DNA of 64,000 nt from Escherichia phage UB, in the sequence record MH383160; one strand, given 5' to 3'. Made by a program: the position numbers and the translations under genes. Within the stretch, counting starts at the first letter, position 1, and the number at the start of each line of letters is the position of its first letter. The notes under the pieces were generated by a model. It was not told where the DNA came from. It saw nothing but the letters and a program-made list of their open reading frames with translations, and made no database searches. Below are positions 2,008 to 60,093 of this stretch, piece after piece.

Positions 2008-2796
2008 TTAAATGTTAGTAGTATAGTACTTGATTTCGTGTTGAATTGCAAGTTCTATTTGTTTATTGAAAAGAATTCCAAACTCTTTGATTGATTCACA
2101 ATCGAATTCAATAGAAAAAGTATACTCTGGTACACGTAGATTGTCAATCCCCAAATACTCTTTTATGTAAATTTTAATGAGTTTACATAGTGCAGTACTA
2201 AGACATTGAATTTCAAAATGTTTTGCACCTTTGTCAAAATACTTGAATGCATCAATATCACCTACAATAAAACTATTCTTTAATGTAGTGAATAGGTTCT
2301 CAGGAAACACGGTAATAGGTGACATTGATTTAAGAATGTATGTATCTTTGGCATTCTTAATGTACTCAATGAAGCAGTAGTTAACGTCAGGCTCGATTGA
2401 ACGATCCGCGTTATGATACCAGTGTTTAAACTCACTGTATTCAGCAAACTTATGCTGGCGTAATGCGTTACATTCTTCACACAGTGCAGTCATGTTCTCT
2501 TTATCATTACCGCCCTGAAGACAGTCCAGTACATTATGGTCTAACGTCATGCGTACAAGGCGTTTCCCTTTAAGTACATAAGGTCTGAATTTATAACGAT
2601 CTTTAGTACTGTGCTTGTGTAAAGTGAATACTACATTTGATTCACCACAACAATCACATTTAAAGCCATCACGTGACATTACATGAATGAGTTTGCGTGT
2701 GTTCGGTCCAAACTCAGATTTAGTAATGTTATCCACAATTTCTGATGGTTGGTAATATTTTGAATTCCGTTGAATCAGTTCATCGATAGTGCCCAT
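2008..2796 (-). CDS. HNH-family endonuclease (262 aa)
   Basis: CDCCGE zinc-knuckle followed by TLDHNVLDCLQGGNDKENMTALCEECNALR, the HNH pattern D-H...N...C..CN. Confidence 0.65.
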   Translation of the reverse strand: MGTIDELIQRNSKYYQPSEIVDNITKSEFGPNTRKLIHVMSRDGFKCDCCGESNVVFTLHKHSTKDRYKFRPYVLKGKRLVRMTLDHNVLDCLQGGNDKENMTALCEECNALRQHKFAEYSEFKHWYHNADRSIEPDVNYCFIEYIKNAKDTYILKSMSPITVFPENLFTTLKNSFIVGDIDAFKYFDKGAKHFEIQCLSTALCKLIKIYIKEYLGIDNLRVPEYTFSIEFDCESIKEFGILFNKQIELAIQHEIKYYTTNI

Positions 2797-3233: not shown

Positions 3234-3820
3234 TGGATATTCCTTAATGGTTAATCATCCATCTCTTCGAGATGTCTGTTCGCTTCTAATACTACGTATT
3301 CTACGCGAATGATTAATAACTGTCAAGGACTTTTAATATTGACGGGATTTGAGGAAGGGATTTTTCTTCCCCCCACAAGGAGGGAAATTTGACGCTGATG
3401 GTATCAGAGCTATTGCATTGAAGATTACTCATAAAGAGTGCGAAAGCGGGTCATCCTGTTTCTCTCTACTTCAGTTTCATATGACGGTCTACACTTTTAA
3501 ACATAGTGTATCTTCATTAAGTATCTATGCAATCAAATACTTAATGTGAGTACTCAAATTTTGGACGCAACTTTCCTGTACAAAATTCGATAACTCTCCC
3601 TTAGATAATTCGTAAGGTGTTATCCTTATATGTCTATCAAGGAACCACCAGCTATCCTAACGTGGTTCTTTATACAGCCGCATTGCCGTGAGGGGTTCAA
3701 ACTATGCCCACATCTAACGGGTTTCTTTTGCTGTTCGCACTGTCGGACTGCTCAACTGCCCTCTACGTTTTCGAGTGGATCAGGTACATAAATATCATGC
3801 CAACAGAATTGTACAAGATA
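3234..3820 (-). ncRNA. Candidate structured non-coding RNA (ORF-free, GC-richer segment)
   Basis: About 590 bp with no minus-strand ORF of 60 aa or more in an otherwise gap-free gene array; locally higher GC; promoter at 3821-3849 and terminator at 3851-3876 flank it; several hairpin-capable segments. Confidence 0.3.
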
Positions 3821-3849
3821 ATTATATCACAAACTTTTACTTCATCCCA
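3821..3849 (-). promoter_or_regulatory. Extended -10 promoter (TGTGATATAAT) reading into the ORF-free segment
   Basis: Minus-strand sequence GTTTGTGATATAAT; the -35 element is weak. Confidence 0.35.
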
Positions 3850-3850
3850 T

Positions 3851-3876
3851 AAAAAAAGGTTGGCATAAGCCAACCC
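3851..3876 (-). terminator. Intrinsic terminator after the sigma factor gene (bidirectional in appearance)
   Basis: Hairpin GGTTGGC-ATAA-GCCAACC flanked by an A7 run and a T-run. Confidence 0.55.
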
Positions 3877-3883
3877 TTTTTCT

Positions 3884-4849
3884 TTAGAAATCTTCGTATT
3901 CGTACCCTTTTGCAAGTACTAGCTTCTTAAGCTTTTGCATAGCTTCACTGTACTTTCGATGTATTGATGAACGGGATTTAACATATTTTCCATTATCATC
4001 AACAAAACCATTATCAGCAATCTCACGAAGCGTTTCAGGTTCATATTCACCTAGACCATGAACACGCTGGATAATCTCACGTTCTTTAGTACTCAATTCG
4101 TTAGTCAGTTCATTGATAGCATAACGTAAAGGTGCACGAATACTATCAACATTGAGGTTAAAATCAGAAGCAGGTGAATGAATAATGTCACCTAGTGTAC
4201 CATCGGTAACACCGTCTAATGGTGCATCCAGCGAAGTGTATTCGCTTTGAAATAACAAACAGTTATTAACATGCTGAATCTCAATCCCAGTACCCTCTGA
4301 GATTATTTCAGGAGTTGGGCGAACACCATGTTTACGCATATATTCCTGACAGAATCTTTTTACTTTGATCTTATGAACACTCATATAACGTGGGAAGTGT
4401 ACCATATAGTTAGCGTCAGAACTTTCGTTATAGACTGTCATGTAAATACTAGAAGAAGCATAGGTAATGAACTTAACATTCTTATTAAGATCAAAGGTTT
4501 TTAGTGCTCTCATGAACCCCTCAACACCATATGAAATCTTATCTTCAAATGGGATATAACAAGTACATTTACTTGCTACATCAATAATCAGTCCATAATT
4601 GTAACGAACTAACAGTTCAGTGTTTTTCTTTACATTGATACCAGCTTGAATATCACGAATTAGATCTTCATTGGAAACATTTGGTGGTCGCTTAAGTGTA
4701 ATATTATATTTGAAACTGCTTTGTACTTTACCTTCATTTTCATCTTTATCTTCAACGAAATCTAAGGCTTCTAGTGTGTTGACTTCTTCATTAGCAAAAC
4801 ATTCATCCAGTACTTCTTCGGCAATTGTATTTAAATCAAGCTTTTTCAC
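3884..4849 (-). CDS. RNA polymerase sigma factor, sigma-70 family (321 aa)
   Basis: Region-2-like LLVRYNYGLIIDVASK...GFMRALKTFD...KFITYASSSI and region-4-like LSTKEREIIQRVHGLGEYEPETLREIA...SRSSIHRKYSEAMQKLKK. Confidence 0.7.
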   Translation of the reverse strand: MKKLDLNTIAEEVLDECFANEEVNTLEALDFVEDKDENEGKVQSSFKYNITLKRPPNVSNEDLIRDIQAGINVKKNTELLVRYNYGLIIDVASKCTCYIPFEDKISYGVEGFMRALKTFDLNKNVKFITYASSSIYMTVYNESSDANYMVHFPRYMSVHKIKVKRFCQEYMRKHGVRPTPEIISEGTGIEIQHVNNCLLFQSEYTSLDAPLDGVTDGTLGDIIHSPASDFNLNVDSIRAPLRYAINELTNELSTKEREIIQRVHGLGEYEPETLREIADNGFVDDNGKYVKSRSSIHRKYSEAMQKLKKLVLAKGYEYEDF

Positions 4850-7800
4850 TTACATCTCCTAATGACGAAATCAAAATCGATATACATTAATATTATCATC
4901 TGTGAAGCAATCATGGTTGTGCACATCCATGAAAGTACTAAACACTTTATCATATAAAGTTGTATGTTCTTCATGAATAGCAGCATCTAGCATGTATTCT
5001 CCACCACTTCCCATAAAGAAAGTGTAGTCTTCATGTAGATATTCAAGTTTTTTAATAAACTTTCCTTTAGTTAAAATCATATGAATAACATAATCTTTAG
5101 AAAGAAGCACACAATGGCAACTTAACTTTCTGTCAGGTATAACTGGTACTTTATTAATTAACCAATCCAGTACTTTATCAATTTCACTTACTACCCCACT
5201 AGCACTGAATAAACGGTCATGTACATATAAAGTTTTTTGATTAACAACTCCATATTGATATTTTGGTCTTAGTGGGAAAAAACCAAATAAGTTTCGTGGT
5301 ATAGTTGACGTAACTCTAGAATCGGTAATCAATAAATTTAATCGTTTATCAATATAAACAGTTGTCATATTAAACCTTATCTAAGAATTTATCGTATATA
5401 TAAAATTCTTTATCGGTGAATACATTAATTCTAGTATCGAATCTTTGCATTGTGTTCATATACAATGAACTTTTTAAATAAAAATACAAAGCAACAAATT
5501 CTGATATATGCATATTCTTTTTATTGTTACATAAATTCTTAAGCATTTTGATGCTATCAAATTCTTTTTCATCAAATCTGTATTGGTAAAAATTGTATCT
5601 ATTGGAACGGCACTCATAGATACGAAGTGCCATTATATCAATACATGCTTTAGATTTACAGTACTTATTCAATACGTCATAATCACCCGTACATAATGCT
5701 ACAAAGATTCTATGTGCGAGTGTAGCTTTGCCTTCAATCGTATAATAGCCAAAAAATTTAATGATTAAGTACTGAATGAATGTAATCATTTGATTTAGAA
5801 TTTCTCCGAAATTACTAGAGTGTCATCATAATCTTCTGCAATATCATGAAGAACTTTTAAGTTACTTTCACCAGAAACGCTTTTTACTTCGTTCAAAAGA
5901 TAGTTTAGATCAACTTTAGTTACTTTTTCTGAATCAAACACACAGAAAGTTAATTCAGCGTTTGGACAGATCTTCTTCAGATTATCAGCAACAACTTGTT
6001 TGAAGTTGAAAGATGGGGAAGCAACCAGGTTAACTGCAACGAGAATAGATTTCATAATGTTTTCCTTTTTAGCTGATAATTAAATTAGGAGCACATTGTA
6101 CTCCATATTATTTGTTATGTCAAATACTTTTAGATACCAAGTGCAGTAGATAACTCTTTACGTTTGTTATATGAATCAGATTCAATCTTACTTTTCTTGT
6201 TGAAAAGGGATTCGATATCCTTATAGATTGCTTCGATAGATTTAGTTACTACCCATTCTGATTCTTGAAGCATACCTTGGAGTCGTGCGTACTCAACTTT
6301 GATAGTACTGCGAAGTTCTTCACAAACTTCTTCATTCTTAATTAGTGCAGCACTAAGTTCTTTGACCTTATCGATGTTCATAAGTTCCTTACTCTAATTT
6401 GTTTTTAACAAAATAATTATATATAACATACTAAATTATGTCAAGTATTTTTAGTACCTTCTTCTGCCATTTTTGTGATATACCAATTAAGTATTGATTT
6501 GTGTACCATAAAAAATGTGAATGCAAATATAGCAATAGCTGCTGATGTAACACTATTAGATAATGACCCAAGTTGGATGTTAGTACCTAAAATAACAATA
6601 AATGGATACAACACAATCAATCTACTGTAAGGTTCGTCTCCAGTATCACGGAGAAATCCAAGCCTTTCATGATCAGTATCCATAGTGACAATTGGACAGA
6701 ACATAAGTGCAGACATAAGAGCAATACCAATTTGTGCTACATTGGAAATTGTAAACCACAAAGGATTTAAACCATATGAAATATTATTTTCTGTACAGTA
6801 GTAACCAAACGAATTGAATGCACAAACTAAAAATACAAAAATACAAATCTTATTATAGCCTCTCATTTGTTTAGCTCCGTTAATTTTCGTTTAACTTCTA
6901 GATCATGAAACTCATCGGCATATGAGTTTTGAACAGTTCTGATGTATTCCAACATAACAAACATAGTTCCACATACCCATAGATATGTATAGTAATCAAA
7001 TACAAATGCATATAACATACACGGTACTAAAATGAAAGTGTAAACAAAACTATATCGTGTAGTTCCAAATACTTTCAGATATAACAAACGTCGATAATCA
7101 CGGGCAAATGTATTGATGCACACTGAAAATGTAATTAATGTATACCATGAAATACCCTGAATTAAACCTGAAACATTTAAAAGTTTATGTTCATCGGAAA
7201 ACCCCAGTGCATTTAGCACTGGAGCCATAACCCAACCAATAATACTAATAAGAAAAAGATATTTTGCATTACTTAGTGTGAACATATTACTTTAGTCCCC
7301 ATGCTTTTTTGATTGCATCAACAGAGTTTTGGTCCACTACTTCCTTTTTTTCTGATGTAGTTTGAAGTTTATTAATTACATATTCCTTTGCATCTTTTTC
7401 TATCATAAATTTACCATCAACCAACACACCAAAAACTTTAGAATTTCGGGCTGGATATGGATTAATTTCATCAAGAGTACGGACTTTCTTATCAACTATA
7501 ATGGCTTTGATGTAACCAGTTTCAAGTACTGTTGTAATCACAGTCATTTCAATTGCAACTGGTGAATCTTCCCAATACGCAATCCATTTAGTAAAGCTAC
7601 GATCAGGTGAATCTTTTGTGCATTTTAATTTAATTGCACTATTAAAAATGTATTGTTTAAAATTGTCATCGACAACTTCACTAATACTAAAATAACCTTC
7701 ACGCTCTTCAACATTACGTTTGAAATTTGTAGCTAATACATCCATTTTCCATCCCCCTTGGGTTACTTGGTGTGTTAATTATAATACTAAGAATCTTTGT

Positions 7801-8262
7801 TGTCAAACTTTTCCCTCAAATATTTTTCTATTAATCTAATTTGTGTTGGTGGTAAGATAAAGTAATCGTACATAGATTTACTACCATGTATCGAACAACC
7901 TACACTAATACTATAATCATATGGATATAAGTATATTGGATCTTGTATATCAGGTATGAAAACTATTCTTGATATATTACCATTTCCTATTCTTACTTGG
8001 ACGTTATCATTATTATTAATATAATTTCTTATACAGTACTCAATTATACCATTTACTTTAGAATCATAACCATAATTTTTATATTCAGGAAAAATGAAAT
8101 AGCGTTCATGGTATAGATATGAGCATAGTAATGCTGGGAAAAAATTCCAAAAACCTTCATGCTTTGCAATTGTTTGTGCATATTTAAAATGATTAGCATT
8201 ACTAAAAATATTATACAGCACAAAATACACAAATGGACTTACCAACAACACTATTGTTAACA

Positions 8263-8724: not shown

Positions 8725-9594
8725 ACCTCTTTTACAATAATATCGATTGATACTGGAATTGCAATTTCACTATTACATGAATATACATCAGCACAGTACT
8801 CAATATCTAGTACTTTAAAATATTTCTCAAAACCACAAATGGTAAGATTCAACGTTGACCCAACTGCTGGGAGTACAGGAAATGATAAGAACGCAATTTT
8901 AGAATGAAATTCTTCATTGATATCTTGATATACAGTTGCAGTAATCACAATGGTAACTCCTGTAGTGGTTTCATAATACCGAGTACTGGGTGATTTTCAA
9001 TCATTGGTCGCCCTGGTACACCAGTGAGGATAACTGGGATAGAACTAATATCTTTTACATAGTTGAATCCCTCAAACGTGAACTCTTGTTTTTTCTCATT
9101 ATACAATACCCATAGTATTACGTCAGCTTTTTTCTGGATATTTTTTAACTGTCGAGTACTAACACATGGTCCAAAGTCAGTCCATGATTTATACTTGATA
9201 CCTTTTACTTCAATACGAAGGTTGTTTACCTTAATATCACATTCACCGTCACGTGCTTCATTTTGGAATGCTGGATCGATATTAAGTTTAATACCAGTAT
9301 TGTTTTCAATTTCATTAAAAAGTACTAAAGATGCGTGCTCACACACCATACCAACAAAATGACTATGTGCATGATTAAAACCATATGGCGATTTACTTGC
9401 TGGAGCCAAAAGTTTATATCGTTCTGATTTTTCAATCGCTTTTGCCATAAAAGAATCAGCTTCATCTTTATATAACTTAACAGTCATTTTTCCATTTTTC
9501 AGTACTAATCTATTATCAATAACATTCATAAAAACACCTCATTATTCATTCACTACATGATAACACCAAATCATACACCAGTCAAGCTCATTTT

Positions 9595-9623
9595 TTGGAT
9601 ATGCATAATAAATACGTTATAAT
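9595..9623 (+). promoter_or_regulatory. Sigma-70-type promoter for the only plus-strand gene in the interior
   Basis: TTGGAT - 17 nt - TATAAT, followed by GGAGGG RBS and ATG at 9646. Confidence 0.55.
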
Positions 9624-9645
9624 AATTATACCAATGGAGGGATAA

Positions 9646-10800
9646 ATGTCAAGGTCAATTGCTGCGGCTGGACGCTATAAGTTTGGTGAATGTGGTTATG
9701 TTGTTGATGGTGCAATCCTCAATGATGGAACTAGACTAAAAAATATTAGAATCTATCGCCAAAGAAGCCATAGATTATATGATTTAGTTGATCCAAGAAC
9801 TAATATAATATATCGTAAAGTACAAATAACAACTAAAGATAATAAAGGTTATCTATTAAATTACAATAAAACTAATGACCAACTATTAAGTGAAATTAAT
9901 AAAAATTGTTTCTTTGTTCGTGGATATTCTGAAGAGCCACAAGAAACTGATACTGGATTTGTATATAAATTCATGCTACATAAAACAATTTTAGGTAGTT
10001 CACAAACCTTGTATCATATGTATACACCTGAATGTGGTATTATAGATCGTGATATAGATAATATTCTCATTTCACCAGTATTTGTTGGTAATGACTCAAT
10101 TAGTGGTAAATTATTCAACACTGGTTCAGAAATTGATACTAACGGTATGGTAATAACAATCGTATTACCAGACGGGACAGAATACTTTACTACCCAATTT
10201 GTTAATGATGCATTTACAATTCCAGTTGATGTTATCACACAATCAGGGAAAGGTACTGCTACACTCACTTCTCCATATTATAACACTAAAGTGGTGGAAT
10301 TTGATGTTCTTGAAAGTGGTGAGGATATTGATTTTGTTACATCAGTTCTTCTATCCCAATTTGAACCTGTTTCGGAAGGTGTATTTTCTGCGGTTGTTCC
10401 ATTTGATGTTCATGATCGTGGACAGTACTTAGCACTTCAAGCATACAGTGGTGACTTATATCAAGTTGGTGTAGATCTTTCTGTAGACGCAGAAGGTAAT
10501 ATTACTGTGTATCAAACTGACAATTTACCTGTTTCTTTGAGTATAATCGGAAAAACACTGCATACTACTCCTTTCCATAAAGAATATACTTTAAGTGAGT
10601 GGGTTCTCGGTGAAGACTCTATGTACTCTATCTCAGTTCCAGTAACTGAACATGGTAAAGCACTACCACAAGTTCAATTATATTCTTCAGACAATCATGT
10701 AGTTCATAGTGAAATACAAGTGGATGAAGATGATAATGTAATTCTTAAAGTAGTAGAACCGCTTGACTGCTCAGTCGTAATAGTTGGTTACAACGCATAA
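9646..10800 (+). CDS. Hypothetical protein (384 aa), beta-rich, opposite-strand gene
   Basis: Long ORF with strong RBS, own promoter, and terminator immediately downstream. Confidence 0.6.
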   Translation: MSRSIAAAGRYKFGECGYVVDGAILNDGTRLKNIRIYRQRSHRLYDLVDPRTNIIYRKVQITTKDNKGYLLNYNKTNDQLLSEINKNCFFVRGYSEEPQETDTGFVYKFMLHKTILGSSQTLYHMYTPECGIIDRDIDNILISPVFVGNDSISGKLFNTGSEIDTNGMVITIVLPDGTEYFTTQFVNDAFTIPVDVITQSGKGTATLTSPYYNTKVVEFDVLESGEDIDFVTSVLLSQFEPVSEGVFSAVVPFDVHDRGQYLALQAYSGDLYQVGVDLSVDAEGNITVYQTDNLPVSLSIIGKTLHTTPFHKEYTLSEWVLGEDSMYSISVPVTEHGKALPQVQLYSSDNHVVHSEIQVDEDDNVILKVVEPLDCSVVIVGYNA

Positions 10801-10801
10801 T

Positions 10802-10837
10802 AAAAAAAGCCACTACAATGTAGTGGCTTTAATTTTA
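10802..10837. terminator. Bidirectional intrinsic terminator between convergent genes
   Basis: A7 run, hairpin GCCACTAC-AAT-GTAGTGGC, then TTTAATTTTAT. Confidence 0.65.
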
Positions 10838-10842
10838 TCTAA

Positions 10843-11655
10843 TTATTTGAAATTGTCACGTAGAACTTCTTCAAGTGTTTTATCTGGATTGCTAATGGCT
10901 ACATTATAAATCAATTCTTTAAATGCAGTTAGTGCCTGCTCAGTTGCTTCTGGACCAAAGTTCTCACTAATGCTTTTAAACATACTTTGTGCACGTTCTG
11001 ATTTGATACAACTAGTTACAAACTTGTCAATTTCATTACGAAGCTGCTTAGTTGTCATGTCACCAATGAGCATCTCACTAATTTCTTTTGGTTCATCTGC
11101 ACTTGTTCGGACATTCGTAAAACCAAACACATCATCACCTGAGCCAAAGCTACGTTTTTCTTTTTTAGTTTCTTTTACTGGTTCTTCTTCAACTTCTTGT
11201 TCGTATTCTTTAGTAAAGAGATGAGATAGTACATCATCAAGATTTTTAACCATACCGTCAATACGAGATTCAGCATTCTTGGATACATGTTTGAATGCTT
11301 GCTCTAGTGCTTTTTCTTGAATCTGGTCACGAACATTATTAACTACATTACGAAGTTTTTCATTACAGTTGTCTAAAATTTCTAATACTTCACCAGTTTT
11401 GATTTTTTCCAAAAGTACATCTAAATCAGATTTTACATGTTGTTTTTGACTTACTTCACCATTAAGAATTGAATTCAATTCTTTAGCACCTTCAACTGCT
11501 TCTTCATGTGTTTTAAATTCAACTGGTACGTCAACACCATCCAGTACAATATTAAGCACTTTACCATCAACGTAGGCGTAGGAGTAAGATGCTTTTTTGA
11601 AAGAAATAGTTTTGAAGAAAATGTTGCTCATATTGATATACTCCTTAATGCCCAC
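10843..11655 (-). CDS. Hypothetical protein (270 aa)
   Basis: Long ORF; no recognisable motif. Confidence 0.5.
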   Translation of the reverse strand: MGIKEYINMSNIFFKTISFKKASYSYAYVDGKVLNIVLDGVDVPVEFKTHEEAVEGAKELNSILNGEVSQKQHVKSDLDVLLEKIKTGEVLEILDNCNEKLRNVVNNVRDQIQEKALEQAFKHVSKNAESRIDGMVKNLDDVLSHLFTKEYEQEVEEEPVKETKKEKRSFGSGDDVFGFTNVRTSADEPKEISEMLIGDMTTKQLRNEIDKFVTSCIKSERAQSMFKSISENFGPEATEQALTAFKELIYNVAISNPDKTLEEVLRDNFK

Positions 11656-16118: not shown

Positions 16119-16208
<90 letters not shown>

Positions 16209-16229
16209 AGAAGTAAGATAACCAACAAG

Positions 16230-16393
<164 letters not shown>

Positions 16394-16436
16394 ATTGACC
16401 TCTTTAGATTAAAACCCCCAGTTTTCTTCTTGAACC

Positions 16437-16955
<519 letters not shown>

Positions 16956-16967
16956 TTATAATACCTG

Positions 16968-17413
<446 letters not shown>

Positions 17414-17414
17414 T

Positions 17415-17452
<38 letters not shown>

Positions 17453-17453
17453 A

Positions 17454-17521
<68 letters not shown>

Positions 17522-17522
17522 A

Positions 17523-17558
<36 letters not shown>

Positions 17559-17588
17559 CGGTAATCATCAATATCAATTTTAGTTTTG

Positions 17589-17643
<55 letters not shown>

Positions 17644-17656
17644 TATATCATGTGAA

Positions 17657-17903
<247 letters not shown>

Positions 17904-17904
17904 A

Positions 17905-18041
<137 letters not shown>

Positions 18042-18065
18042 GTACTATTTTCGGAAAAAACCTTC

Positions 18066-18100
<35 letters not shown>

Positions 18101-18436
18101 CGGAAACACATTTTCATATACTGTTCGTTTCTGGAATTCATCTGCTTCATCAGCACATAGCTTGAAAGTAATGTATTCAGTACTTAAACTATTTACTATA
18201 TCTCGTAACGTAGGATATTTTAGTTTTTTTATTTCTTTATTTTCTTCTAATGATTCAAAAACAATTTCGTTATCATTAATAATAAACGATTCATCGTTCT
18301 CATTAAAAACACGGATTTCTGGGTTATCATCACTCCAATTTTTAGAAGCTTTAGATGTTAATTTGGAATTTAAAAATGATTTAAGAAACTCTTCATACTT
18401 TGAAATGTCTTTAACACTCATATACCCAACTTTAAT

Positions 18437-18497
18437 TAAAAAAATGGATGGTGACGCTTTTAAACGCCGCTGTTAATTCAGCTTTATAACCATCCGT
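18437..18497 (-). terminator. Putative intrinsic terminator with long hairpin
   Basis: Minus-strand ACGGATGGT ... ACCATCCAT arms followed by TTTTTTTAATT. Confidence 0.35.
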
Positions 18498-18499
18498 TT

Positions 18500-18775
18500 T
18501 AACTTGCCTTTCGGCTACCTTGACGTGGGGCGTACAGGCTGCTAAAAGCAACTTCTGTAAACATATTTCCACGCCTTACCCTTTTAAATAAAAGTCCATC
18601 CGGTTTTCCAGTTTGGTGAAGGACTGTCACCTCTAGTTTCAACCTGCTAGTCAAGTAATAATTGCCTATCGTCCAATTATCAAACCCGTCTAGGTTAACA
18701 TTCACCACTTCCTAGAGTACCAGAGATCTTGTTCTGGATAGCATCGACGTAACTTACACCATATACGTCTGATTG
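18500..18775 (-). ncRNA. Candidate small non-coding RNA inside the tRNA cluster
   Basis: GC-richer ORF-poor segment between an extended -10 promoter (TGATATAAT at about 18781-18795) and the terminator at 18437-18497; the only listed ORF has no RBS. Confidence 0.25.
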
Positions 18776-18800
18776 TGGAATTCATTATATCAGTACTGAA

Positions 18801-18992
18801 CTATTCATCAGTGCTCAAATAAATTGTATCAGTTTTACATTTATACTGAATACGATGATCAATAAACGTACCTTGTTTATAAAGATCTGCATTTTTTACA
18901 TCAGTAATGATTTCAACACCAACATATTGTTTAAAAAGAACTTCTGCTTCTGGATATTGTTTAAGAATTTTAATCAAATCTTTAGCTTTCAT
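18801..18992 (-). CDS. Small protein, MKAK(E/D)LIK N-terminal family (63 aa)
   Basis: N-terminus MKAKDLIKILKQYPEAEVLF. Confidence 0.45.
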   Translation of the reverse strand: MKAKDLIKILKQYPEAEVLFKQYVGVEIITDVKNADLYKQGTFIDHRIQYKCKTDTIYLSTDE

Positions 18993-19022
18993 TTAATCCC
19001 ACTCGTTTATGTGTTAAGATAC

Positions 19023-19229
<207 letters not shown>

Positions 19230-19232
19230 GTT

Positions 19233-19390
19233 CGTACCATTATTTCAATAAAGAACCACGGATACGCTTCATGGTTTATAAGTTTATCGTATTCTGCTGG
19301 GTCTGACATGATTTCCCAATGATACTTTCTCCAGTTACCGAAACCTGCATATCTAAAATTAATGTCATTCATCCATTCTTCATGCGTCAT
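19233..19390 (-). CDS. Small protein, MTHEEWM family (about 52 aa)
   Basis: Manual translation MTHEEWMNDINFRYAGFGNWRKYHWEIM.... Confidence 0.4.
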
Positions 19391-19441
19391 GGTTTTAACC
19401 TTTAATTAAAATTATCATAGGCATAAATTTAATTACTATCA

Positions 19442-19984
<543 letters not shown>

Positions 19985-19998
19985 AATATTATATTTTA

Positions 19999-20070
19999 TA
20001 AAGGGCCGGAGAATCGAACTCCGATTGGATTCTTAGAAGGAATCTGTTTTATCCATTAAACTAGCCCCTC
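19999..20070 (-). tRNA. tRNA-Arg (anticodon TCT)
   Basis: D-arm GTTT-AATGGATA-AAAC; anticodon stem GATTC/GAATC with loop CTTCTAA; T-arm CGGAG-TTCGATT-CTCCG; acceptor has two G-U pairs. Confidence 0.65.
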
Positions 20071-20080
20071 AGTACTAATA

Positions 20081-20108
20081 ATTATATCACATCTTTATGT
20101 GATGTCCA
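20081..20108 (-). promoter_or_regulatory. Sigma-70-type promoter upstream of tRNA-Arg (TGGACA-N16-TATAAT, extended -10)
   Basis: Minus-strand TGTGATATAAT lies 11 nt upstream of the tRNA 5' end. Confidence 0.45.
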
Positions 20109-20673
20109 ATTATTTATGATTCGGTTTCGGGATTAAATTTTATAAATTCATCTTTATATTCATCTTCAATCGCAATATCTTCTACTTCTTCAGGCCAAAT
20201 CGTAGTGTCTCCTTGATAAAAGCGATAATTATCAAATACTGCACTACGCGTTCTTCCCTGTTCCCAGCCAATCGTACAGTCATGATATACATCCCCACTA
20301 CTTGTACGAATACTAATGGTGTCTTGAGTTTCATAAAGAACTTCAATGCGTGTGTTACGATTTACGTTGAATTTTTCAAAATGCATAATATTATCCTCAT
20401 CTAGAACCAGTGATAATCATTATATAATGAATTAATGATTTATGCAAGTGTTTTAGATACACCGACACCAATAATTCCAGTGATATCGATATGGATATTG
20501 GCAAGTTGATTACTATCATATGGGTTTGTTTCTGTAATAACCAATGTTGTATCATTGACTAAAACCACAGTACCTTTTACACGATAACCATGTAGTAGTA
20601 CTTGAACCTCATCTTCAGGTTTTAATGATTGAATAACTTCAAATAAAGTTGTTTCCATTTTTGTATTCCTTGT

Positions 20674-20874
20674 TTAGTTTTGATTATTTGACTTTCTAAA
20701 TGCCAGTTCGCATATAAACCAGGGTTTTCTGGTATCCAAAACATATGACCTGAAAAGATTTTCATCTCTTAATATATCATAATGTACCTGACGAATGCCA
20801 TTCCCAAAGCAGTCATGTTCTTTATGCTGTTTGGACATCCATTCTTCGTGTGTCATTTTATGTATCCAGTACAA
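20674..20874 (-). CDS. Small protein, MTHEEWM family (66 aa)
   Basis: MYWIHKMTHEEWMSKQHKEHDCFGNGIRQVHYDILRD...WFICELAFR. Confidence 0.5.
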   Translation of the reverse strand: MYWIHKMTHEEWMSKQHKEHDCFGNGIRQVHYDILRDENLFRSYVLDTRKPWFICELAFRKSNNQN

Positions 20875-21091
20875 TTAAGTGCTGCATCTCTTCTTTTGTA
20901 AAGAAAGCACTGTCATGAACAATAGAACCAGTCTTATCAACTACATAGTACAGGTTTCCATATTGTTGAACATCAATTCCGTCAATTTCAATTCGTGGAA
21001 AATTTTGGACAATACAGTCTGCACCGAAAACCTCACCAAAAAAGTTTCCTGCTGGATTGATAATGACTTTCATATTAAATCACCTTTATTG

Positions 21092-21193
<102 letters not shown>

Positions 21194-21633: not shown

Positions 21634-23716
21634 CTCTTAATATCCATAACGGCTATACTAAAATATGTACCAAAATCATCACAATTGATAATGTTGTTAT
21701 AGTACTCAATTGGGTTACGCAATGATATATACAATTCAAGCTTAAAATAGTATATATCTGCTGCATTTATATTATAGTGTAGATTAAACCACTCATCAAA
21801 TGTCTTAGGCTGCATTATATTTATCTTTATAAAAATCCATGATTTTAGTCAACAGTACTGCAATCGTATAATCTAAATCAGGATAAAGTAAATTGTACTG
21901 AAATTCTTCCTCAACACTATAGTTAGTGGTACAGTACTGGTAATCTTTATAACCTATTGAAAAATAATTCGGATACAATGTACAACGAAAGCGATAAGCT
22001 TCATCTGTCATATAATCATTGTATTCAACACAGAAGTATAGTGATTTTGAATTTAATTCGATAAGCTCAACGAATCCATCAGGTAATGAATGGTTATAAA
22101 TTACTGAATCTTCATTAAACCATTCATAGTATTTTTCCAAAAAATCACTAATGGATACATCCAGACTTTGTATAGGTGGAGTTATGATAATTTGAACTTC
22201 TTTATTCATTTCGACCCCTTACTATATTTCACGTATGGGCTATCATACAGATCATAACTTTTTTGTGCACGTTCTTTTCGGCGTTCATACATGATTCTAT
22301 CATACTCTTTAGCTTTCTGATTTGCTTCATTATACAATTTTAAAATTAGCAAAAATGCATCAAGATCGGGATAGTTTACTGGATTGATAGTACTCAGCAT
22401 AAATCGTTCTTCTTCAGTTCTAGCTAAGTCAAATTCATACTTAATAGTTTTATACCCACTCCATTTATATATATGCGTTACTTTATTAGTAAGTACATTA
22501 TATTCAACGAAGTCAGTACTACCATCAAGTACACGAGTAATCTTAATAGATGTACCAATGACAATCTGCACAGAACTCATTTCTGAAGTTTTAAAGTAAT
22601 AAATGTTATTACGGCGAAGATTAACTTCTCGATCTCCAATGCGAACATGCTTAATAACTTCCATTAATGGTTCTGGGACACCACGAATCGGCATGTTAGT
22701 ATTCCTCAATAACGGTTAGGAATCTATCCCAACCAGTATAAGTGAAATGATCAAAGTATTGTTTTTCGCCACCTACCATATATACTTCAATTAAACCGTG
22801 GTCGAAATAATTTTTTGGTTTTTTAACTTCAGTTACGATTGCTTTATGTCTGAAACCATTATAATCAGTATATGTTACAATATCGTGAATTTTGATATTA
22901 TCAGGTGTATAAGTGTTGGCGTTATTATTGAGAACATGAAGATGATGGTCTACGATTTCTTTACTGGAAATTACTCCAAATATGTTACCAGAAAATACTT
23001 TATTACCATTACAGGTCAATGCCCAGCCATCACCAACTTCAATAGATTCAAATACATAATGTGTGCAAATTTTAGATACATCTGACGTATCCCAGTAATC
23101 ACCATCAAGATTGGTGAATTTATAAACAGTTTTGAGTTTTTCGCCATCAAATGAAAGCAATGATACTCCGATAACAACCGTTCCGTCTTTAAGAATAATA
23201 TTAAATTTATTATTTGTATTAAAGTATGCTTCTGACTCATATGTGTTGAATTTAATAAAGTTCATATGTTCTCCTTAGTAAGTCATAGTATTATATCAGA
23301 GTTTCATTGCACTTACCAGCATGTTTTCATAACTTCTGTGATGTAAATCATTTTATCTTTTAGTGTGTAAGGGATGCAAATTTCACCTGGGCTTAACGTT
23401 GTGTTCTTTTGAAACTCATCTTCTTCGGAATCAGCCAGGTAAAATGGGTGTGTCACAAAGGTATCATCAACTGGACGATTATGTGGTTTCATTAATGCAT
23501 CATGATTGACAAAATAATAAGCATCAATATCAGGACGGAAATACAAACAATCAACCTTAATGCACGGGTGTAACCATAAGGACAAAGAATATGTTATTTG
23601 GTTACCAATTTGTCTTGGGCCTGATGCAATTGCATTGATGTTATTTTTATCTTGTACCATTTCATAAATGAAATCTATCATTTCGTGTAGTTCTGATTCA
23701 GTCATTTTATTTCCTT

Positions 23717-23746: not shown

Positions 23747-25086
23747 TACAAAGTAACGTTTAATCAGATTTCTTTTCGTAATCTGTAAAAACAGTCAGGA
23801 TTGTTGCACATAGTGAATCAACTACTGATGCACGTGTGTTATCAAGGTCTTTAGCTAGTGCTTGAATCTCTTGAAGTTTTACTACTAAGTCGATTTTTTG
23901 ATTACTCATTACTTCTCCTATTGGATGTTTTTTAGATATTAATTTTTATACCACTAAGGTCTAGAACTTTTTTATTAGATACTGTTTCTGATTCTAATTT
24001 AGTTTCTTTTACCTCAGTGTTAATATTTACGTCATCTTTGAGAATATCAGGGATAATACCATGTTGAATATCATCGTACATAGAAACAACGGTTTCGGCA
24101 CAAGATAACATTTCACGAACTTTGTACTGATAACCCTGTGGTAACTCATTGATGATTTCCATAATATCTAGTAATTTAGTTTGGACATCAATAAGAATTT
24201 TTCTTGATTTTTCTGGTTCCATTACTCCAACTCCACAACATTACTTTTTTTGGATTTAATCACTGATGGTGGCTCATTAACGCTTGTTTGACCACGAAGT
24301 GATTTTTCCAACGCAATGATGCGTTTTAAAGTTTTTATTGATGGTCGCTTCTTCGTCAACTCAGCTTTTGCTTCTGAATAATATTTTCTTACATATCCAT
24401 AGGCATAATATTTTGAACCAATGAAAATTTCAGCAACTACTGGATTTGAGTATTGTGTATCAATTCCATCTAGATCCGTGTCTACCGAGTAGAATGAAAT
24501 ATTTGTATCACATGCTGAAATTTTAGCCACCAAAAGATTTGCATCGAACTTATCTAAAATTAGAGAAATTGTTTTTTCGGCATCAGCACTATATGGCATA
24601 GCAGACATTAAAAGTTGGAATGTCTTAAAGTACTTACTTCCACTAATCATGGTATTGAAAATCAATCCAATGGTGATTAATGCAAGTGTACCAATACACA
24701 CAAACAAAAACCAATATTCAACACTCATTTATAAATCCTCTTACTTTATATGATTAAAATGCCCCATCAAAAATGATGAGGCGGTAAGATAAATTACTTA
24801 CGATTTGCTTTACGCAGTTCAGATAGTTCTTCTTGAAGACTTTTCTTCCATGCAATCAAGTGAGCAAAACGGATTGGCCTTGCACCAGTACCGTGGAATA
24901 CTGCTAGAGCTTCTTCTGCTTGATGAATCTGGAATTGAATGTAGTTCACAGTGCGGTCGAAGTCGGTGATATCTAGTACTTGTGCGTTAGTTTCTTTAGC
25001 CATTTTAATACCCTTTTATTTCTTTTTTATGAAAAACCCTCATCATTGAGGAATGGTTTGCATTTTAATATCTGCCGATAACAAAC

Positions 25087-25114: not shown

Positions 25115-25963
25115 ATTTTTAATTATTAGAAAGAACAATTTTTGAAACTGGTAAATCTGTATCATTTACACGTTGTTCATTATATCCATTCTGTACAAGA
25201 ATGTCAATAACTTTAGACTTATCAATTGTAAATGATTCTAACATATCATATCGGTAATAACCAATAGTCTGACTGAACTCATATTTTCCTGGCTGTTGAC
25301 GACAACACGTATTTGTTTCAGCCATAATCTTATTGATTAGGTAATATGTTTCAGTACTATCAATATTTGGAATATAGATCTTATCATCAAAATGAATTAC
25401 TTCATGTTTATTCATAGAGTGATTCAATCTCCGCTTTAAGAATGGAAATGATCTCTTTCTGAAGGCCAGTAATTTCACTGTTCAAAGATGATAGTCGCTT
25501 CGATAATGCCATGAATTGCTTTGCATCTTCTTTAGAACGGTCATTTCGTACTTTATCAGAACTCCAGTTAGCATATGATTGCTCATCTTTCCTGTTAAGG
25601 ATATCCCAGTCTAAACGTACTAGTTTACGTTCTTTCTTCAGTTCGCTTAAGCGAGATTTCATTTCGTCTTTAGTCATTAGATTGTTCCTTTCATGAAGTC
25701 TGGAATAACGATTACGATAGGAGGATTATACTCTACATAACCATTTTTTGTCAATAGACTTTTAATATCTGAAATCACATTATCATGCTGTTCAATATCT
25801 TTATCACAAAAGATTTCCAATTCTTTCTGAAACGGTTTTTTAACCGAGATGTTTTGAGTCAGTGTTTGGATTCGCTGTAACATATCAATTGGATCTGGAC
25901 TGAACTCATTACCAACATAAAGAGTACCAGATGCATCTTTTTCTAGCAAGACTTCTAAAATTT

Positions 25964-27585: not shown

Positions 27586-27614
27586 ATTATACATACTCCA
27601 TTTTCATGTGTCAA
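27586..27614 (-). promoter_or_regulatory. Consensus sigma-70 promoter (TTGACA-N17-TATAAT)
   Basis: Both hexamers are perfect consensus on the minus strand. Confidence 0.6.
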
Positions 27615-34610: not shown

Positions 34611-35162
34611 TTATTTATCATTTAATTCTTTAAGTTGGGTTTGTATATCTTTAGTTATATTTCGAATTTTCTTAAAGCAATAAACACTATCGTCCAATTC
34701 GATTTTAAGTTCATGTGTAAATGCATACAGAAGTTCAGCAAATACTAAATCTTGACGCATCCAGTTTCCATCTTTATATAAAGTCATTACACAATATGGG
34801 CATTCACTATTAGAAGTTTGCTTTCCAATAAAAACACTTTGAATTGATTCATGCTTAAAGCCAATAAAACTTTCATTTATTTTTTTAATTTCAGTACTGA
34901 TATCGAATTTAGCACTGGTGTTGATTGCAAAAATTTTATTCCCACTTTCATCAGTATTGATATTGAGTTCAATATCACTACCTAGTTTACGTACTGCTAG
35001 AGTATAAAGAAGTAATTCATACATGTCGTAACTTGTTACATTACCATTTGGTGCAATTACATCAACACTAACACCGTGCATTTTTACTTCTGTATTAAAT
35101 CCATCTTTATCAGAAAGAAAATCAGTGATTTGCTTTGTAAGGATTTTAATTTGGTCTATCAT
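34611..35162 (-). CDS. Hypothetical protein (183 aa)
   Basis: ORF; no recognisable motif. Confidence 0.5.
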   Translation of the reverse strand: MIDQIKILTKQITDFLSDKDGFNTEVKMHGVSVDVIAPNGNVTSYDMYELLLYTLAVRKLGSDIELNINTDESGNKIFAINTSAKFDISTEIKKINESFIGFKHESIQSVFIGKQTSNSECPYCVMTLYKDGNWMRQDLVFAELLYAFTHELKIELDDSVYCFKKIRNITKDIQTQLKELNDK

Positions 35163-41624: not shown

Positions 41625-41703
41625 AAGTTAGTTCCTTATCTGTACATTAAAAAGAGTGCGTTTTCAATAAGATTATATTAAAAACGCACTCATATGTCAA
41701 CTA

Positions 41704-59806: not shown

Positions 59807-60093
59807 GTAATAAAAGCTCCAATATGATTTTAATGTTTTGTTCGATAGTAATTATAGGATAGAACATTAGTTCTGTCAAGCACTATCATTGTGTTTTTTA
59901 ATTGCTTCACAGATTGCTTGAACTTGAACAAGATAAGTTTTTGCAAATTCTGCTTGGGTTCGCACACGGGGGTTCGGTGCGTCTTTGATCATAAGTTCTA
60001 GGTCATAAACTACCTTATCAAAAACTCCCTTGTCTTCAATAATACGATCATAAAATGTTTTGTCAGTCATGTCAAGAACTCCATGTTATAAAA

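Follow-up and report, generated by a model that had tools for sequence, protein, structure and literature searches.

A moron-like opposite-strand gene of 121Q/PBECO4-type jumbo phages: an inherited, accessory and probably late virion protein with Ig-like domains

The 384-aa plus-strand gene of the window (the whole stretch of 64,000 nt from Escherichia phage UB, record MH383160, that was analysed) is no moron but a phage gene of long standing, passed on by inheritance, and its product is a known virion protein that is accessory and late. On the virions of 121Q/PBECO4-type jumbo phages this product is probably a surface protein with an accessory role and late expression. The ORF call bears out the coding sequence that had been noticed from the letters alone (9646..10800, plus strand; 384 aa, 42.9 kDa, pI 4.6). 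The window comes from an Asteriusvirus jumbo phage of the 121Q/PBECO4 group; 20 records match its 1.6-kb region around the gene at 99% identity or more, and all 31 records with a DNA-level match to the region carry the gene. The protein is 100% identical in 17 phage records and has a full-length homologue in 60; over 99% of its length it matches 121Q/PBECO4 at 100% and GAP32/CBB at 38% identity (tblastn). Orthologues are 121Q gene 155, annotated as 'virion structural protein; Ig-domain', phAPEC6 gp077 (99.5% identical), CBB_496 and GAP32_475. The match to the PHROG 10468 'virion structural protein' family covers residues 1-383 of the 384-position profile (hmmscan E = 7.6e-184). Is the protein found in the particle? 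ESI-MS/MS detected phAPEC6 gp077 in purified virions with 10 peptides and 37.8% coverage (PMC7247149), and likewise CBB_496, the 38% identical orthologue, with 4 peptides and 17.5% coverage (PMC5259590). The gene is already known, being annotated in more than 20 near-identical genomes with a product twice detected in virions. The Sharanji genome paper contains no proteomic or promoter data.

What gives such a gene the look of an acquired cassette? As the sequence-only reading had stated, it stands alone on its strand: a greedy ORF map of the window has 110 minus-strand vs 9 plus-strand ORFs, the remaining plus ORFs being just 60-86 aa long, and of the 89 features annotated in the corresponding 32 kb of 121Q none but gene 155 is on the opposite strand. 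A search for a paralogue inside the window found none. The gene occupies the boundary between two leftward early transcription units. Its convergent right neighbour (10843..11631, minus strand; PHROG 14991), which lies outside the cassette, is a virion protein, 121Q gene 154/phAPEC6 gp078c, seen in phAPEC6 by mass spectrometry with 4 peptides and 21.4% coverage (PMC7247149). The RaK2 homologue of this neighbour, ORF233, is annotated as a virion structural protein, and a search for a late motif before the neighbouring gene found none within 11-14 kb.

The sequence-only reading took the lone gene for a moron, a cassette acquired independently that brings its own sigma-70 promoter, its own terminator and a function foreign to virion building. 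The transcription unit is indeed autonomous, with promoter, RBS and bidirectional hairpin around a single gene, and it shares with the morons of temperate phages (lambda/HK97 type) a single gene that runs against its neighbours' direction between its own promoter and terminator. The architecture of a self-contained cassette stands to this extent, but the promoter that is conserved belongs to the late type of the phage itself, the phage is a virulent jumbo phage and the product, by mass spectrometry of two orthologues, is a virion component and not a function unneeded for lytic growth. Synteny was inspected in other Asteriusvirus isolates, Mimasvirus GAP32/CBB, Eneladusvirus fHe-Yen9-04, Salmonella phage Munch and Xanthomonas phage XaC1. 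In all 11 of these other genomes, from at least four lineages, the gene keeps its opposite-strand orientation and its left neighbour (PHROG 16175), and the same right-hand virion-protein gene follows 1-2 genes away, except in XaC1, where this neighbour was not identified. The sequence-only reading had itself held that relatives carrying the gene in the same place with conserved neighbours would speak against a moron, and the synteny of the 11 genomes shows essentially this. Its suggestion that presence might vary was half right. RaK2 and its relatives keep both neighbours adjacent with the cassette cleanly absent, and the two neighbours are adjacent without the gene in the distant Vibrio phage 2.275.O, as a moron would have it; but the gene is present in the 31 DNA-level and 60 protein-level records given above and missing solely from the Alcyoneusvirus lineage and that distant Vibrio phage, which is not a sporadic presence among close relatives. 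Loss in RaK2 would be more parsimonious than independent acquisition and is favoured, because the tree of the left-neighbour gene nests RaK2 inside the carriers (82% bootstrap). The gene appears to be accessory, since RaK2 and its relatives do without the cassette between both neighbours. Its composition is native to the phage, with a GC content of 33.6% vs 33.1% for the window and mid-range codon usage; this and its vertical inheritance over several genera again set it apart from temperate-phage morons. Paralogues within the same genomes that share the N-terminal module and the cassette layout (described below) also tell against the label, which we consider very improbable.

From which promoter would the gene be read? 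The sequence-only reading had pointed to a sigma-70-like TTGGAT-N17-TATAAT (9595..9623, plus strand; TTGGAT at 9595-9600, TATAAT at 9618-9623). The letters are present, but the match is of a 10-of-12 class that occurs at chance frequency (59 found vs 65 +/- 8 in shuffled sequence, over 11 kb), and the TTGGAT -35 is not conserved even in relatives of 76-84% identity, while the TATAAT -10 is partly conserved. What is conserved instead is a T4-type late-promoter motif, ATAAATAC, at 9608..9615 (plus strand), 30 nt upstream of the ATG. NTAAATA(C/T) stands 23-34 nt before the ATG in 12/12 phages compared; the sequence upstream of it is not conserved among these phages and has no -35 element. The 64-kb window contains ATAAATAC once, vs 7.8 +/- 2.6 occurrences expected. 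TATAAT as a true -10 was rejected as the main signal because the -35 that goes with it is unconserved, whereas all 12 phages keep TAAATA(C/T) next to it; TTGGAT-N17-TATAAT is probably not the operative promoter. Partly conserved and 2 nt past the late motif, TATAAT could add some sigma-70 transcription. The late promoter of the CBB orthologue is already tabulated in the literature, where the same element is published as Porf_496 (ATAAATACTTTATA) (PMC5259590 Table S7). CBB, a member of the same phage group, encodes a gp55-like sigma factor as T4 does, and the region was placed there among early genes; no gp33 or gp45 homologues were found in CBB, unlike T4 late transcription (PMC5259590). The likeness to T4-type late promoters lies further in the TAAATA core, the missing -35 and the short distance upstream of a late structural gene. 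The difference lies in the consensus, NTAAATA(C/T) here and TATAAATA at the gp55-dependent promoters of the T4 type. From the conservation of the motif and the analogy with T4 we infer that the gene is expressed late. The strong RBS of the sequence-only reading also holds: the Shine-Dalgarno sequence GGAGGG (9636..9641, plus strand) lies 4 nt before the ATG, and a purine-rich, GGAG-like one is present in all relatives compared.

The opposite strand of this spacer carries signals of another kind. A perfect sigma-70 consensus promoter, TTGACA-N16-TGgTATAAT, points leftward at 9625..9652 (minus strand), with its -35 within codons 1-3 of the plus-strand gene and its spacer across that gene's RBS. 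Perfect sigma-70 consensus sites number nine in the window, all on the minus strand, vs 0.36 expected by chance. A second leftward sigma-70-like promoter, TTGACT-N17-TGtTATCAT (9557..9585, minus strand), is a candidate for driving the left-hand early genes; its TTGAC -35 (GTCAA on the plus strand) is intergenic and conserved in 11/12 phages, and its CBB counterpart has been published as the RpoD-like promoter Porf_497 (PMC5259590 Table S7).

At the other end of the gene, the hairpin terminator flanked by A and T runs was read correctly and is bidirectional. It lies at 10806..10830 and consists of an A-run, an 11-bp stem with a 3-nt loop (GCCACTAC-AAT-GTAGTGGC) and a T-rich run on the other side. 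RNA folding gives a dG of -16.6 kcal/mol on the plus strand and -18.2 on the minus strand, with z scores of -5.7 and -5.3 respectively (0/200 shuffles fold as well), and a U-run follows on both strands, UUUUUUUAUUAU on the minus strand and the weaker UUUAAUUUUAU on the plus strand. An equivalent hairpin (dG -16 to -18 kcal/mol) stands directly 3' of the stop codon in 12/12 phages and the annotations of G17, UE-S1 and Munch list it as a terminator. Since the 12 phages have six different stem sequences, it is the structure of the hairpin that is conserved, not its sequence.

These motifs suggest how the locus may be read. The gene would lie antisense inside a long early block that host sigma-70 RNA polymerase transcribes leftward. 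Early transcripts arriving from the right would end at the bidirectional hairpin, and new ones would begin within the 116-nt spacer, at the two leftward sigma-70 promoters, of which one lies across the start codon and RBS of the plus-strand gene. Rightward reading of that gene would occur late only, from the T4-type ATAAATAC, presumably with the phage's gp55-like late sigma factor. Antisense orientation and terminator would thereby insulate a late structural gene from early read-through. As it stands the gene has little significance, but it offers a textbook case of how a large virulent phage may insulate a late structural gene within an early region, by running it antisense, closing it with a terminator that works in both directions and letting early and late promoters overlap. 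An insulated late gene of this kind mimics the layout of a moron, and orientation, promoter and terminator are therefore no proof of a moron without a synteny check.

What does the protein look like? The homology and structure searches that the sequence-only reading had recommended return a PHROG 10468 virion protein built of an N-terminal module and three Ig-like sandwiches. The N-module (aa 1 to about 125; 9646..10020, plus strand) has a conserved KQRS...FDLID core, a predicted beta-rich, SH3-like fold and a presumed role as a virion-binding anchor. In the AlphaFold2 model it is followed by three tandem Ig-like beta-sandwich domains at about aa 137-222, 228-301 and 307-384 (10054..10797, plus strand), with pLDDT above 90 across the Ig-like region. 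The earlier description of a beta-rich protein with no catalytic motif fits: the model is nearly all beta, and a Pfam scan of the protein and both neighbours gave nothing above threshold. The sole Pfam match of the protein was Ig_NUP210_4th, at 15.2 bits vs a cutoff of 25.2, and Big_2 (PF02368) had no match in it at the Pfam gathering threshold. Self-BLAST detected no internal repeat at the sequence level. Foldseek matches the Ig region to tandem Ig-like arrays (the Bap C region, filamin Ig3-5, the Sap S-layer protein and phage Ig-domain surface proteins); with the full model as query against the PDB, it returned generic tandem Ig arrays at low TM-scores, and no phage decoration protein in particular. 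Searching PDB sequences with the family profile brought up chance matches only (E of at least 0.11), with no Hoc entry among them.

The N-module is common to about 70 proteins carrying from zero to seven or more Ig-like domains, and the paralogues and metagenomic relatives that share it have bona fide Big_2 repeats. It also occurs on its own, as the 14-kDa 121Q gp471/phAPEC6 gp347, and phAPEC6 gp347, a virion protein, had a peptide coverage of 75.2%, more than any other protein of that study (PMC7247149). One uncultured jumbo-phage contig encodes three N-module paralogues, each an opposite-strand gene with (T)ATAAATAC or GTAAATAT 30-35 nt upstream; a hairpin and T-run follow both of the two whose 3' ends were examined. 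Because paralogues within the same genomes share the N-module and the cassette layout, the family is native to this phage group. No Pfam family covers the N-module, nor does it have a solved structural relative.

The obvious comparison is with Hoc of T4. The two proteins are alike in size (384 aa here vs 376 aa), in acidity (pI 4.6 vs about 5) and in plan, one non-Ig module of capsid-binding type and a string of three Ig-like domains, the latter here from AlphaFold2. Both are late and non-essential-looking, in both families the anchor stays the same while the number of Ig domains changes (0 to 7 or more here), and the 121Q major capsid protein belongs to the T4 gp23 family. The differences concern the anchor, which is N-terminal here and C-terminal in Hoc, so that the domain order is reversed, and which is predicted to be beta-rich and SH3-like, whereas Hoc has an alpha/beta domain. 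Homology to the capsid-binding domain of Hoc (T4 residues 281-376) was rejected: an hhalign comparison with T4 Hoc gave a probability of 0.13%, and BLASTP nothing below E = 1. The phiKp24 capsid paper concerns a different, self-decorating MCP with T=27 and is uninformative as a source of a homologous decoration protein, and the paper on a Hoc-like protein of Klebsiella phage PMBT63 concerns a T4-like phage and is irrelevant here.

Where on the virion would the protein sit, and what would it do there? We suggest that the N-module fastens the protein to capsid or tail, with the acidic string of Ig domains pointing away from the particle. No single function attaches to Ig-like domains. By analogy with the role suggested for T4 Hoc and for further Ig-domain proteins of phages, the string may give weak, non-essential adhesion to carbohydrate-rich surfaces. 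Phage structural proteins of the Big_2 type (in the sense of Fraser et al. 2006) likewise carry Ig-like sandwiches appended to a virion protein and are thought to mediate weak carbohydrate adhesion; the three sandwiches here differ in falling below the threshold of Big_2 or any Pfam Ig family and are recognisable by fold alone. Could the Ig domains instead recognise the primary receptor, on a short fibre essential for host range? Ig-like arrays do occur in adhesins and invasins, and the fHe-Yen9-04 orthologue is annotated as 'possible surface protein, responsible for cell interaction', but the protein is 100% identical in phages of different E. coli pathotypes and of Salmonella, unlike fast-evolving receptor-binding proteins. 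Such a role is improbable also in view of the gene's absence from RaK2-type phages, the annotated tail fibres and baseplate module elsewhere in the genome, and a model without trimeric fibre or beta-helix features.

For the accessory surface protein that we favour, the tail is an unlikely but by no means far-fetched site: it might decorate sheath, collar or baseplate, or anchor the 'hairy' whisker fibres, and not bind the capsid at all. phAPEC6 and CBB show decoration densities at two tail levels and fibre rings on the sheath, PHROG 3575 'major tail protein' covers the N-module, and in CBB, GAP32 and K64-1 the shorter N-module paralogues bear the annotation 'major tail protein'. These labels, however, very likely derive from the Big_2 Ig domain, which is frequent on tail proteins of lambda type, and PHROG families 10468 and 33171 are filed under 'head and packaging'. 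RaK2, without the gene, is not reported to be hairy, yet neither is GAP32, which has it. As to the capsid, the 10-A map of phAPEC6 assigns no protein to any decoration density, among them one at each hexamer centre, and a literature search found no recent high-resolution Asteriusvirus structure. Tentatively, and as a possibility that goes well beyond our main conclusion, the N-module may be an undescribed virion-anchoring domain of Rak2-like jumbo phages, a functional analogue of the Hoc anchor but unrelated to it and N-terminal, which displays from zero to at least seven Ig-like domains and together with its stand-alone copy accounts for some of the decoration densities of the T=28 capsid. 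In 121Q/phAPEC6 these would be the lattice protein present once per MCP and the protein at the hexamer centre. All inspected Ig-carrying members (the gene and its orthologues and the three uncultured-contig paralogues), and the phAPEC6 stand-alone copy, are antisense late-promoter cassettes in early or metabolic blocks. The shared module provides concrete candidates for decoration densities of the 121Q/phAPEC6 capsid, gp155/gp077 and gp471/gp347, and might serve as a display anchor for the engineering of 121Q/phAPEC6-type phages.

The plus-strand open reading frame of 384 amino acids (9646-10800) encodes a virion protein with Ig-like domains that is already known, is conserved and accessory, and is probably made late. 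The sequence-only reading had singled it out as a lone opposite-strand gene with a strong ribosome-binding site, and both points stand. A Shine-Dalgarno GGAGGG (9636-9641, plus strand) ends 4 nt 5' of the ATG, and a greedy map of the window's ORFs of at least 60 aa has 110 on the minus strand against 9 on the plus strand, the remaining eight of which have just 60-86 aa. The annotation of phage 121Q agrees, as the gene (gene 155) is the sole opposite-strand feature among 89 in the equivalent 32 kb, tRNAs counted. Across the 1.6-kb region, identity reaches at least 99% in 20 Asteriusvirus jumbo coliphage records with genomes of ~350 kb (including 121Q, PBECO4, phAPEC6, G17, slurp01, SP27 and Sharanji), and a further 11 records match it at 76-84% identity. 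What does the gene encode? A Pfam scan of the product returned nothing significant, the 121Q annotation reads "virion structural protein; structural protein, Ig-domain", and PHROG 10468 "virion structural protein" is matched over its full length (E = 7.6e-184). ESI-MS/MS of purified particles detected the phAPEC6 orthologue gp077 (99.5% identical, 42.88 kDa) with 10 unique peptides and 37.8% coverage (PMC7247149 Table 1), and the CBB orthologue CBB_496 (38% identical) with 4 peptides and 17.5% coverage (PMC5259590).

Is the gene, with its own promoter and terminator, an independently acquired cassette, that is, a moron? A full-length homologue was found by tblastn in 60 phage records, with identity down to 31%; carriers are Asteriusvirus, Mimasvirus (GAP32, CBB), Eneladusvirus (BF, fHe-Yen9-04), the Salmonella phages Munch, 7t3 and SE_PL, and Erwinia, Xanthomonas and Klebsiella aerogenes phages. 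In all 11 other genomes inspected for synteny (121Q, G17, UE-S1, BF17, JNE01, A4, EJP2, Munch, CBB, GAP32/fHe-Yen9-04 and XaC1) it is a lone opposite-strand gene adjoining the same ~190-aa left neighbour (PHROG 16175), and a gp078c-type virion protein lies 1-2 genes rightward, not identified in XaC1. Because the locus is conserved, GC content (33.6%; whole window 33.1%) and codon usage (unremarkable) are native and the product is a virion protein by mass spectrometry, the moron reading is not supported and is essentially refuted. RaK2 keeps both flanking genes (the left neighbour, at 72% identity, and that of the right-hand virion protein) side by side on one strand with no cassette between them, and the hit list suggests a similar arrangement for K64-1 and KP13-7. 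The 141-nt RaK2 spacer (185892-186032; 3342-3482 of the examined piece) holds only an early sigma-70 promoter and an A-run/GCCTCC hairpin/T-run terminator; exactly the segment that separates the two in carriers, late promoter and ORF, is cleanly absent. The gene is also missing from a distant Vibrio phage. Was it lost or repeatedly gained? A neighbour-joining tree built only from the protein on the left side and rooted on the Vibrio phage makes RaK2 the sister of Asteriusvirus (82% bootstrap), and the carriers XaC1, EJP2, Munch and Mimas/Eneladus branch below the pair. With RaK2 nested among carriers, a single loss in its lineage would be the more parsimonious history, compared with recurrent gain at one site, judging from this single 190-aa protein. 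Gain or loss alike, RaK2-type phages do without the gene; thus it is dispensable for a RaK2-type virion and accessory. The HNH homing-endonuclease gene (2008-2796, minus strand; 121Q gene 170), whose codon usage is the most deviant among the larger ORFs of the window, would fit a mobile insertion better.

The promoter assignment is the one part of the earlier observation that was not borne out. The proposed sigma-70-like hexamers, TTGGAT (9595-9600) and TATAAT (9618-9623) on the plus strand with a 17-nt spacer, do exist as a 10-of-12 match, but matches of this class occur at chance frequency (59 seen versus 65 +/- 8 in shuffles of 11 kb), and in an alignment of the 116-nt spacer across 12 phages the -35 is not conserved and TATAAT only partly. 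Every one of the 12 spacers carries the T4-type late motif NTAAATA(C/T) 23-34 nt 5' of the ATG, once in 11 phages and twice in XaC1. The window copy, ATAAATAC (9608-9615, plus strand), is single in the 64 kb against 7.8 +/- 2.6 expected, and in a ranking of the permutations of its own letters TAAATAC comes close to the bottom (index 3 of 105), which fits a signal avoided in the early region, apparently through counter-selection against the late-promoter core. Additional late promoters may exist at two more intergenic minus-strand TAAATAC, at 23748 and 35214, which are ~37-46 nt 5' of the starts of ORFs 23313-23705 and 34611-35162. Work on CBB reported ATAAATA 5' of structural genes at 35 sites, pointed out the resemblance to TATAAATA, the late promoter of T4, and described a gp55-like sigma factor; Table S7 of that study includes "Porf_496 ATAAATACTTTATA", the promoter of the CBB orthologue, along with a divergent RpoD-like promoter, Porf_497, and the region is placed among early genes (PMC5259590). 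The gene would be expressed from this T4-type late promoter, insulated inside an early block. The right-hand neighbour, whose phAPEC6 counterpart gp078c is likewise a virion protein by mass spectrometry (PMC7247149), is on the early strand, 13 nt past the preceding gene; its longest ORF is 10843-11655 (minus strand, GTG start at 11655; 121Q annotates an ATG at 11631), and TAAATA(C/T) is absent within 3 kb upstream.

Leftward, the spacer carries a sigma-70 promoter, TTGACT-N17-TGtTATCAT (9585-9557, minus strand), whose -35 is kept in 11 of 12 phages. A consensus scan adds a perfect one, TTGACA-N16-TGgTATAAT (9652-9625, minus strand), with its -35 within codons 1-3 of the plus-strand gene and its spacer spanning the ribosome-binding site. 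The window holds nine perfect TTGACA-N16-18-TATAAT sites (1475-1502, 6416-6444, 7778-7806, 9625-9652, 25179-25207, 25725-25754, 27586-27614, 41672-41700 and 59851-59879), every one on the minus strand and reading in the direction of the genes; with 0.36 +/- 0.59 expected by chance, this argues for real host-type early promoters, and the predicted sites are a strong host-RNAP early-promoter signature of the minus-strand block. Early and late promoters overlap on opposite strands at the spacer and would be mutually exclusive. The early block also encodes a 321-aa sigma-70-family 'RNA polymerase sigma factor' (3884-4849, minus strand; 121Q gene 167), 4.7 kb left of the cassette and in the same relative position in XaC1; its CBB equivalent has regions 2-4 and is distinct from the gp55-like late factor (PMC5259590).

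The hairpin terminator flanked by A and T runs was correctly recognised. It starts 5 nt past the stop codon (10806-10830, both strands), with an A-run, an 11-bp GC-rich stem, a 3-nt loop and a T-rich run, and folds at -16.6 (plus strand) and -18.2 kcal/mol (minus strand), well beyond shuffles (z-scores -5.7 and -5.3; 0 of 200 fold equally well). All 12 phages have an equivalent hairpin after the stop codon (dG -16 to -18 kcal/mol), with six distinct stem sequences (GCCACTAC, GCCTCC, GGCTCC, GGCGACC, GGCACTC and GGAGCC), so conservation is at the level of structure and not of sequence. In Mimas- and Eneladusvirus it overlaps the stop codon of a convergent methyltransferase gene. A hairpin of this kind is also present in RaK2, ~25 nt from the early promoter; the site of the cassette is therefore the terminator/promoter junction where one early transcription unit ends and another begins.

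The homology and structure searches point to a modular protein. In the AlphaFold2 model (mean pLDDT 80), a linker modelled at low confidence (residues 94-134) joins an N-terminal domain to three Ig-like beta-sandwiches (pLDDT >90). Foldseek matches are tandem Ig-like arrays (Bap, filamin Ig3-5, S-layer Sap), and in BFVD the Munch orthologue comes first, followed by paralogues of the same phage group and other phage Ig-domain proteins. When 1.84 billion representative proteins were searched exhaustively with the profile, 160 matched, ~70 of them only over profile positions 1-122, always at the extreme N terminus of proteins of 124 to 1859 aa. Among 10 sampled proteins the remainders are strings of 1-7 Big_2 domains, Invasin_D3/Big_1 domains or HYDIN-like Ig domains, with nothing recognised in 3. 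A shared N terminus with differing remainders thus defines a family with a constant N-module (the ~125-aa N-terminal domain) and a variable Ig string. The N-module also occurs by itself in Asteriusviruses (121Q gene 471 = phAPEC6 gp347, 14.1 kDa, 125 aa), and gp347 tops the mass-spectrometry table with 75.2% coverage (PMC7247149). The 121Q locus (217700-218240; 3370-3910 of the examined piece) is on the opposite strand, accompanied only and preceded by gene 472, a truncated extra copy (43-codon remnant); gp347 (1220-1597 of the examined piece) is a lone opposite-strand gene, and both have the bidirectional A-run/hairpin/T-run on the 3' side. The version in Mimas-, Eneladus- and Alcyoneusviruses has one Big_2 domain added, and its CBB copy has a late promoter, Porf_112 (PMC5259590). 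An uncultured jumbo-phage-like contig (k119_279171, ENA metagenome, 117 kb), which also encodes NAMPT, NMNAT/NUDIX and dCMP deaminase, has three N-module paralogues of 653, 344 and 221 aa (6001-7962, 9332-10366 and 10409-11074), each antisense to its neighbours and with (T)ATAAATAC or GTAAATAT 30-35 nt upstream; a hairpin and T-run follow the 653-aa and 221-aa genes, the two 3' ends examined. The shared layout is therefore a habit of the gene family and not an accident of the locus. The only mildly new point is that the N-module defines an anchor-like family, so far uncharacterised, whose genes regularly take the form of antisense late cassettes.

Where on the virion could such a protein sit? 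T4 Hoc (376 aa, acidic, three Ig domains plus a capsid-binding domain, bound at hexamer centres; PMC10385173) shares the design principle of a constant module and an Ig string, but the two are not homologous (hhalign probability 0.13%), and a Hoc homologue was rejected. The 10-A map of phAPEC6, identical to that of 121Q, has several unassigned densities: a lattice protein with one copy per MCP, a protein of two-armed appearance at each hexamer centre, tail decoration at two levels and long hairs. Hoc is bound in either of two orientations that differ by 180 degrees, averaging to a two-fold shape (PMC10385173), so a Hoc-like role at the hexamer centre is attractive for the gene product, if rather unlikely. 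The tRNA block of the window seems to differ from that of 121Q, since ARAGORN finds six tRNAs at 16129-21171 (minus strand; Thr-tgt, Asn-gtt, Met-cat, Ser-act, Arg-tct, Gly-tcc) and the 121Q annotation has eight in the equivalent region, with Ser-tga and Leu-taa and without Arg-tct, and Gly-tcc is offset by ~260 nt between the two.
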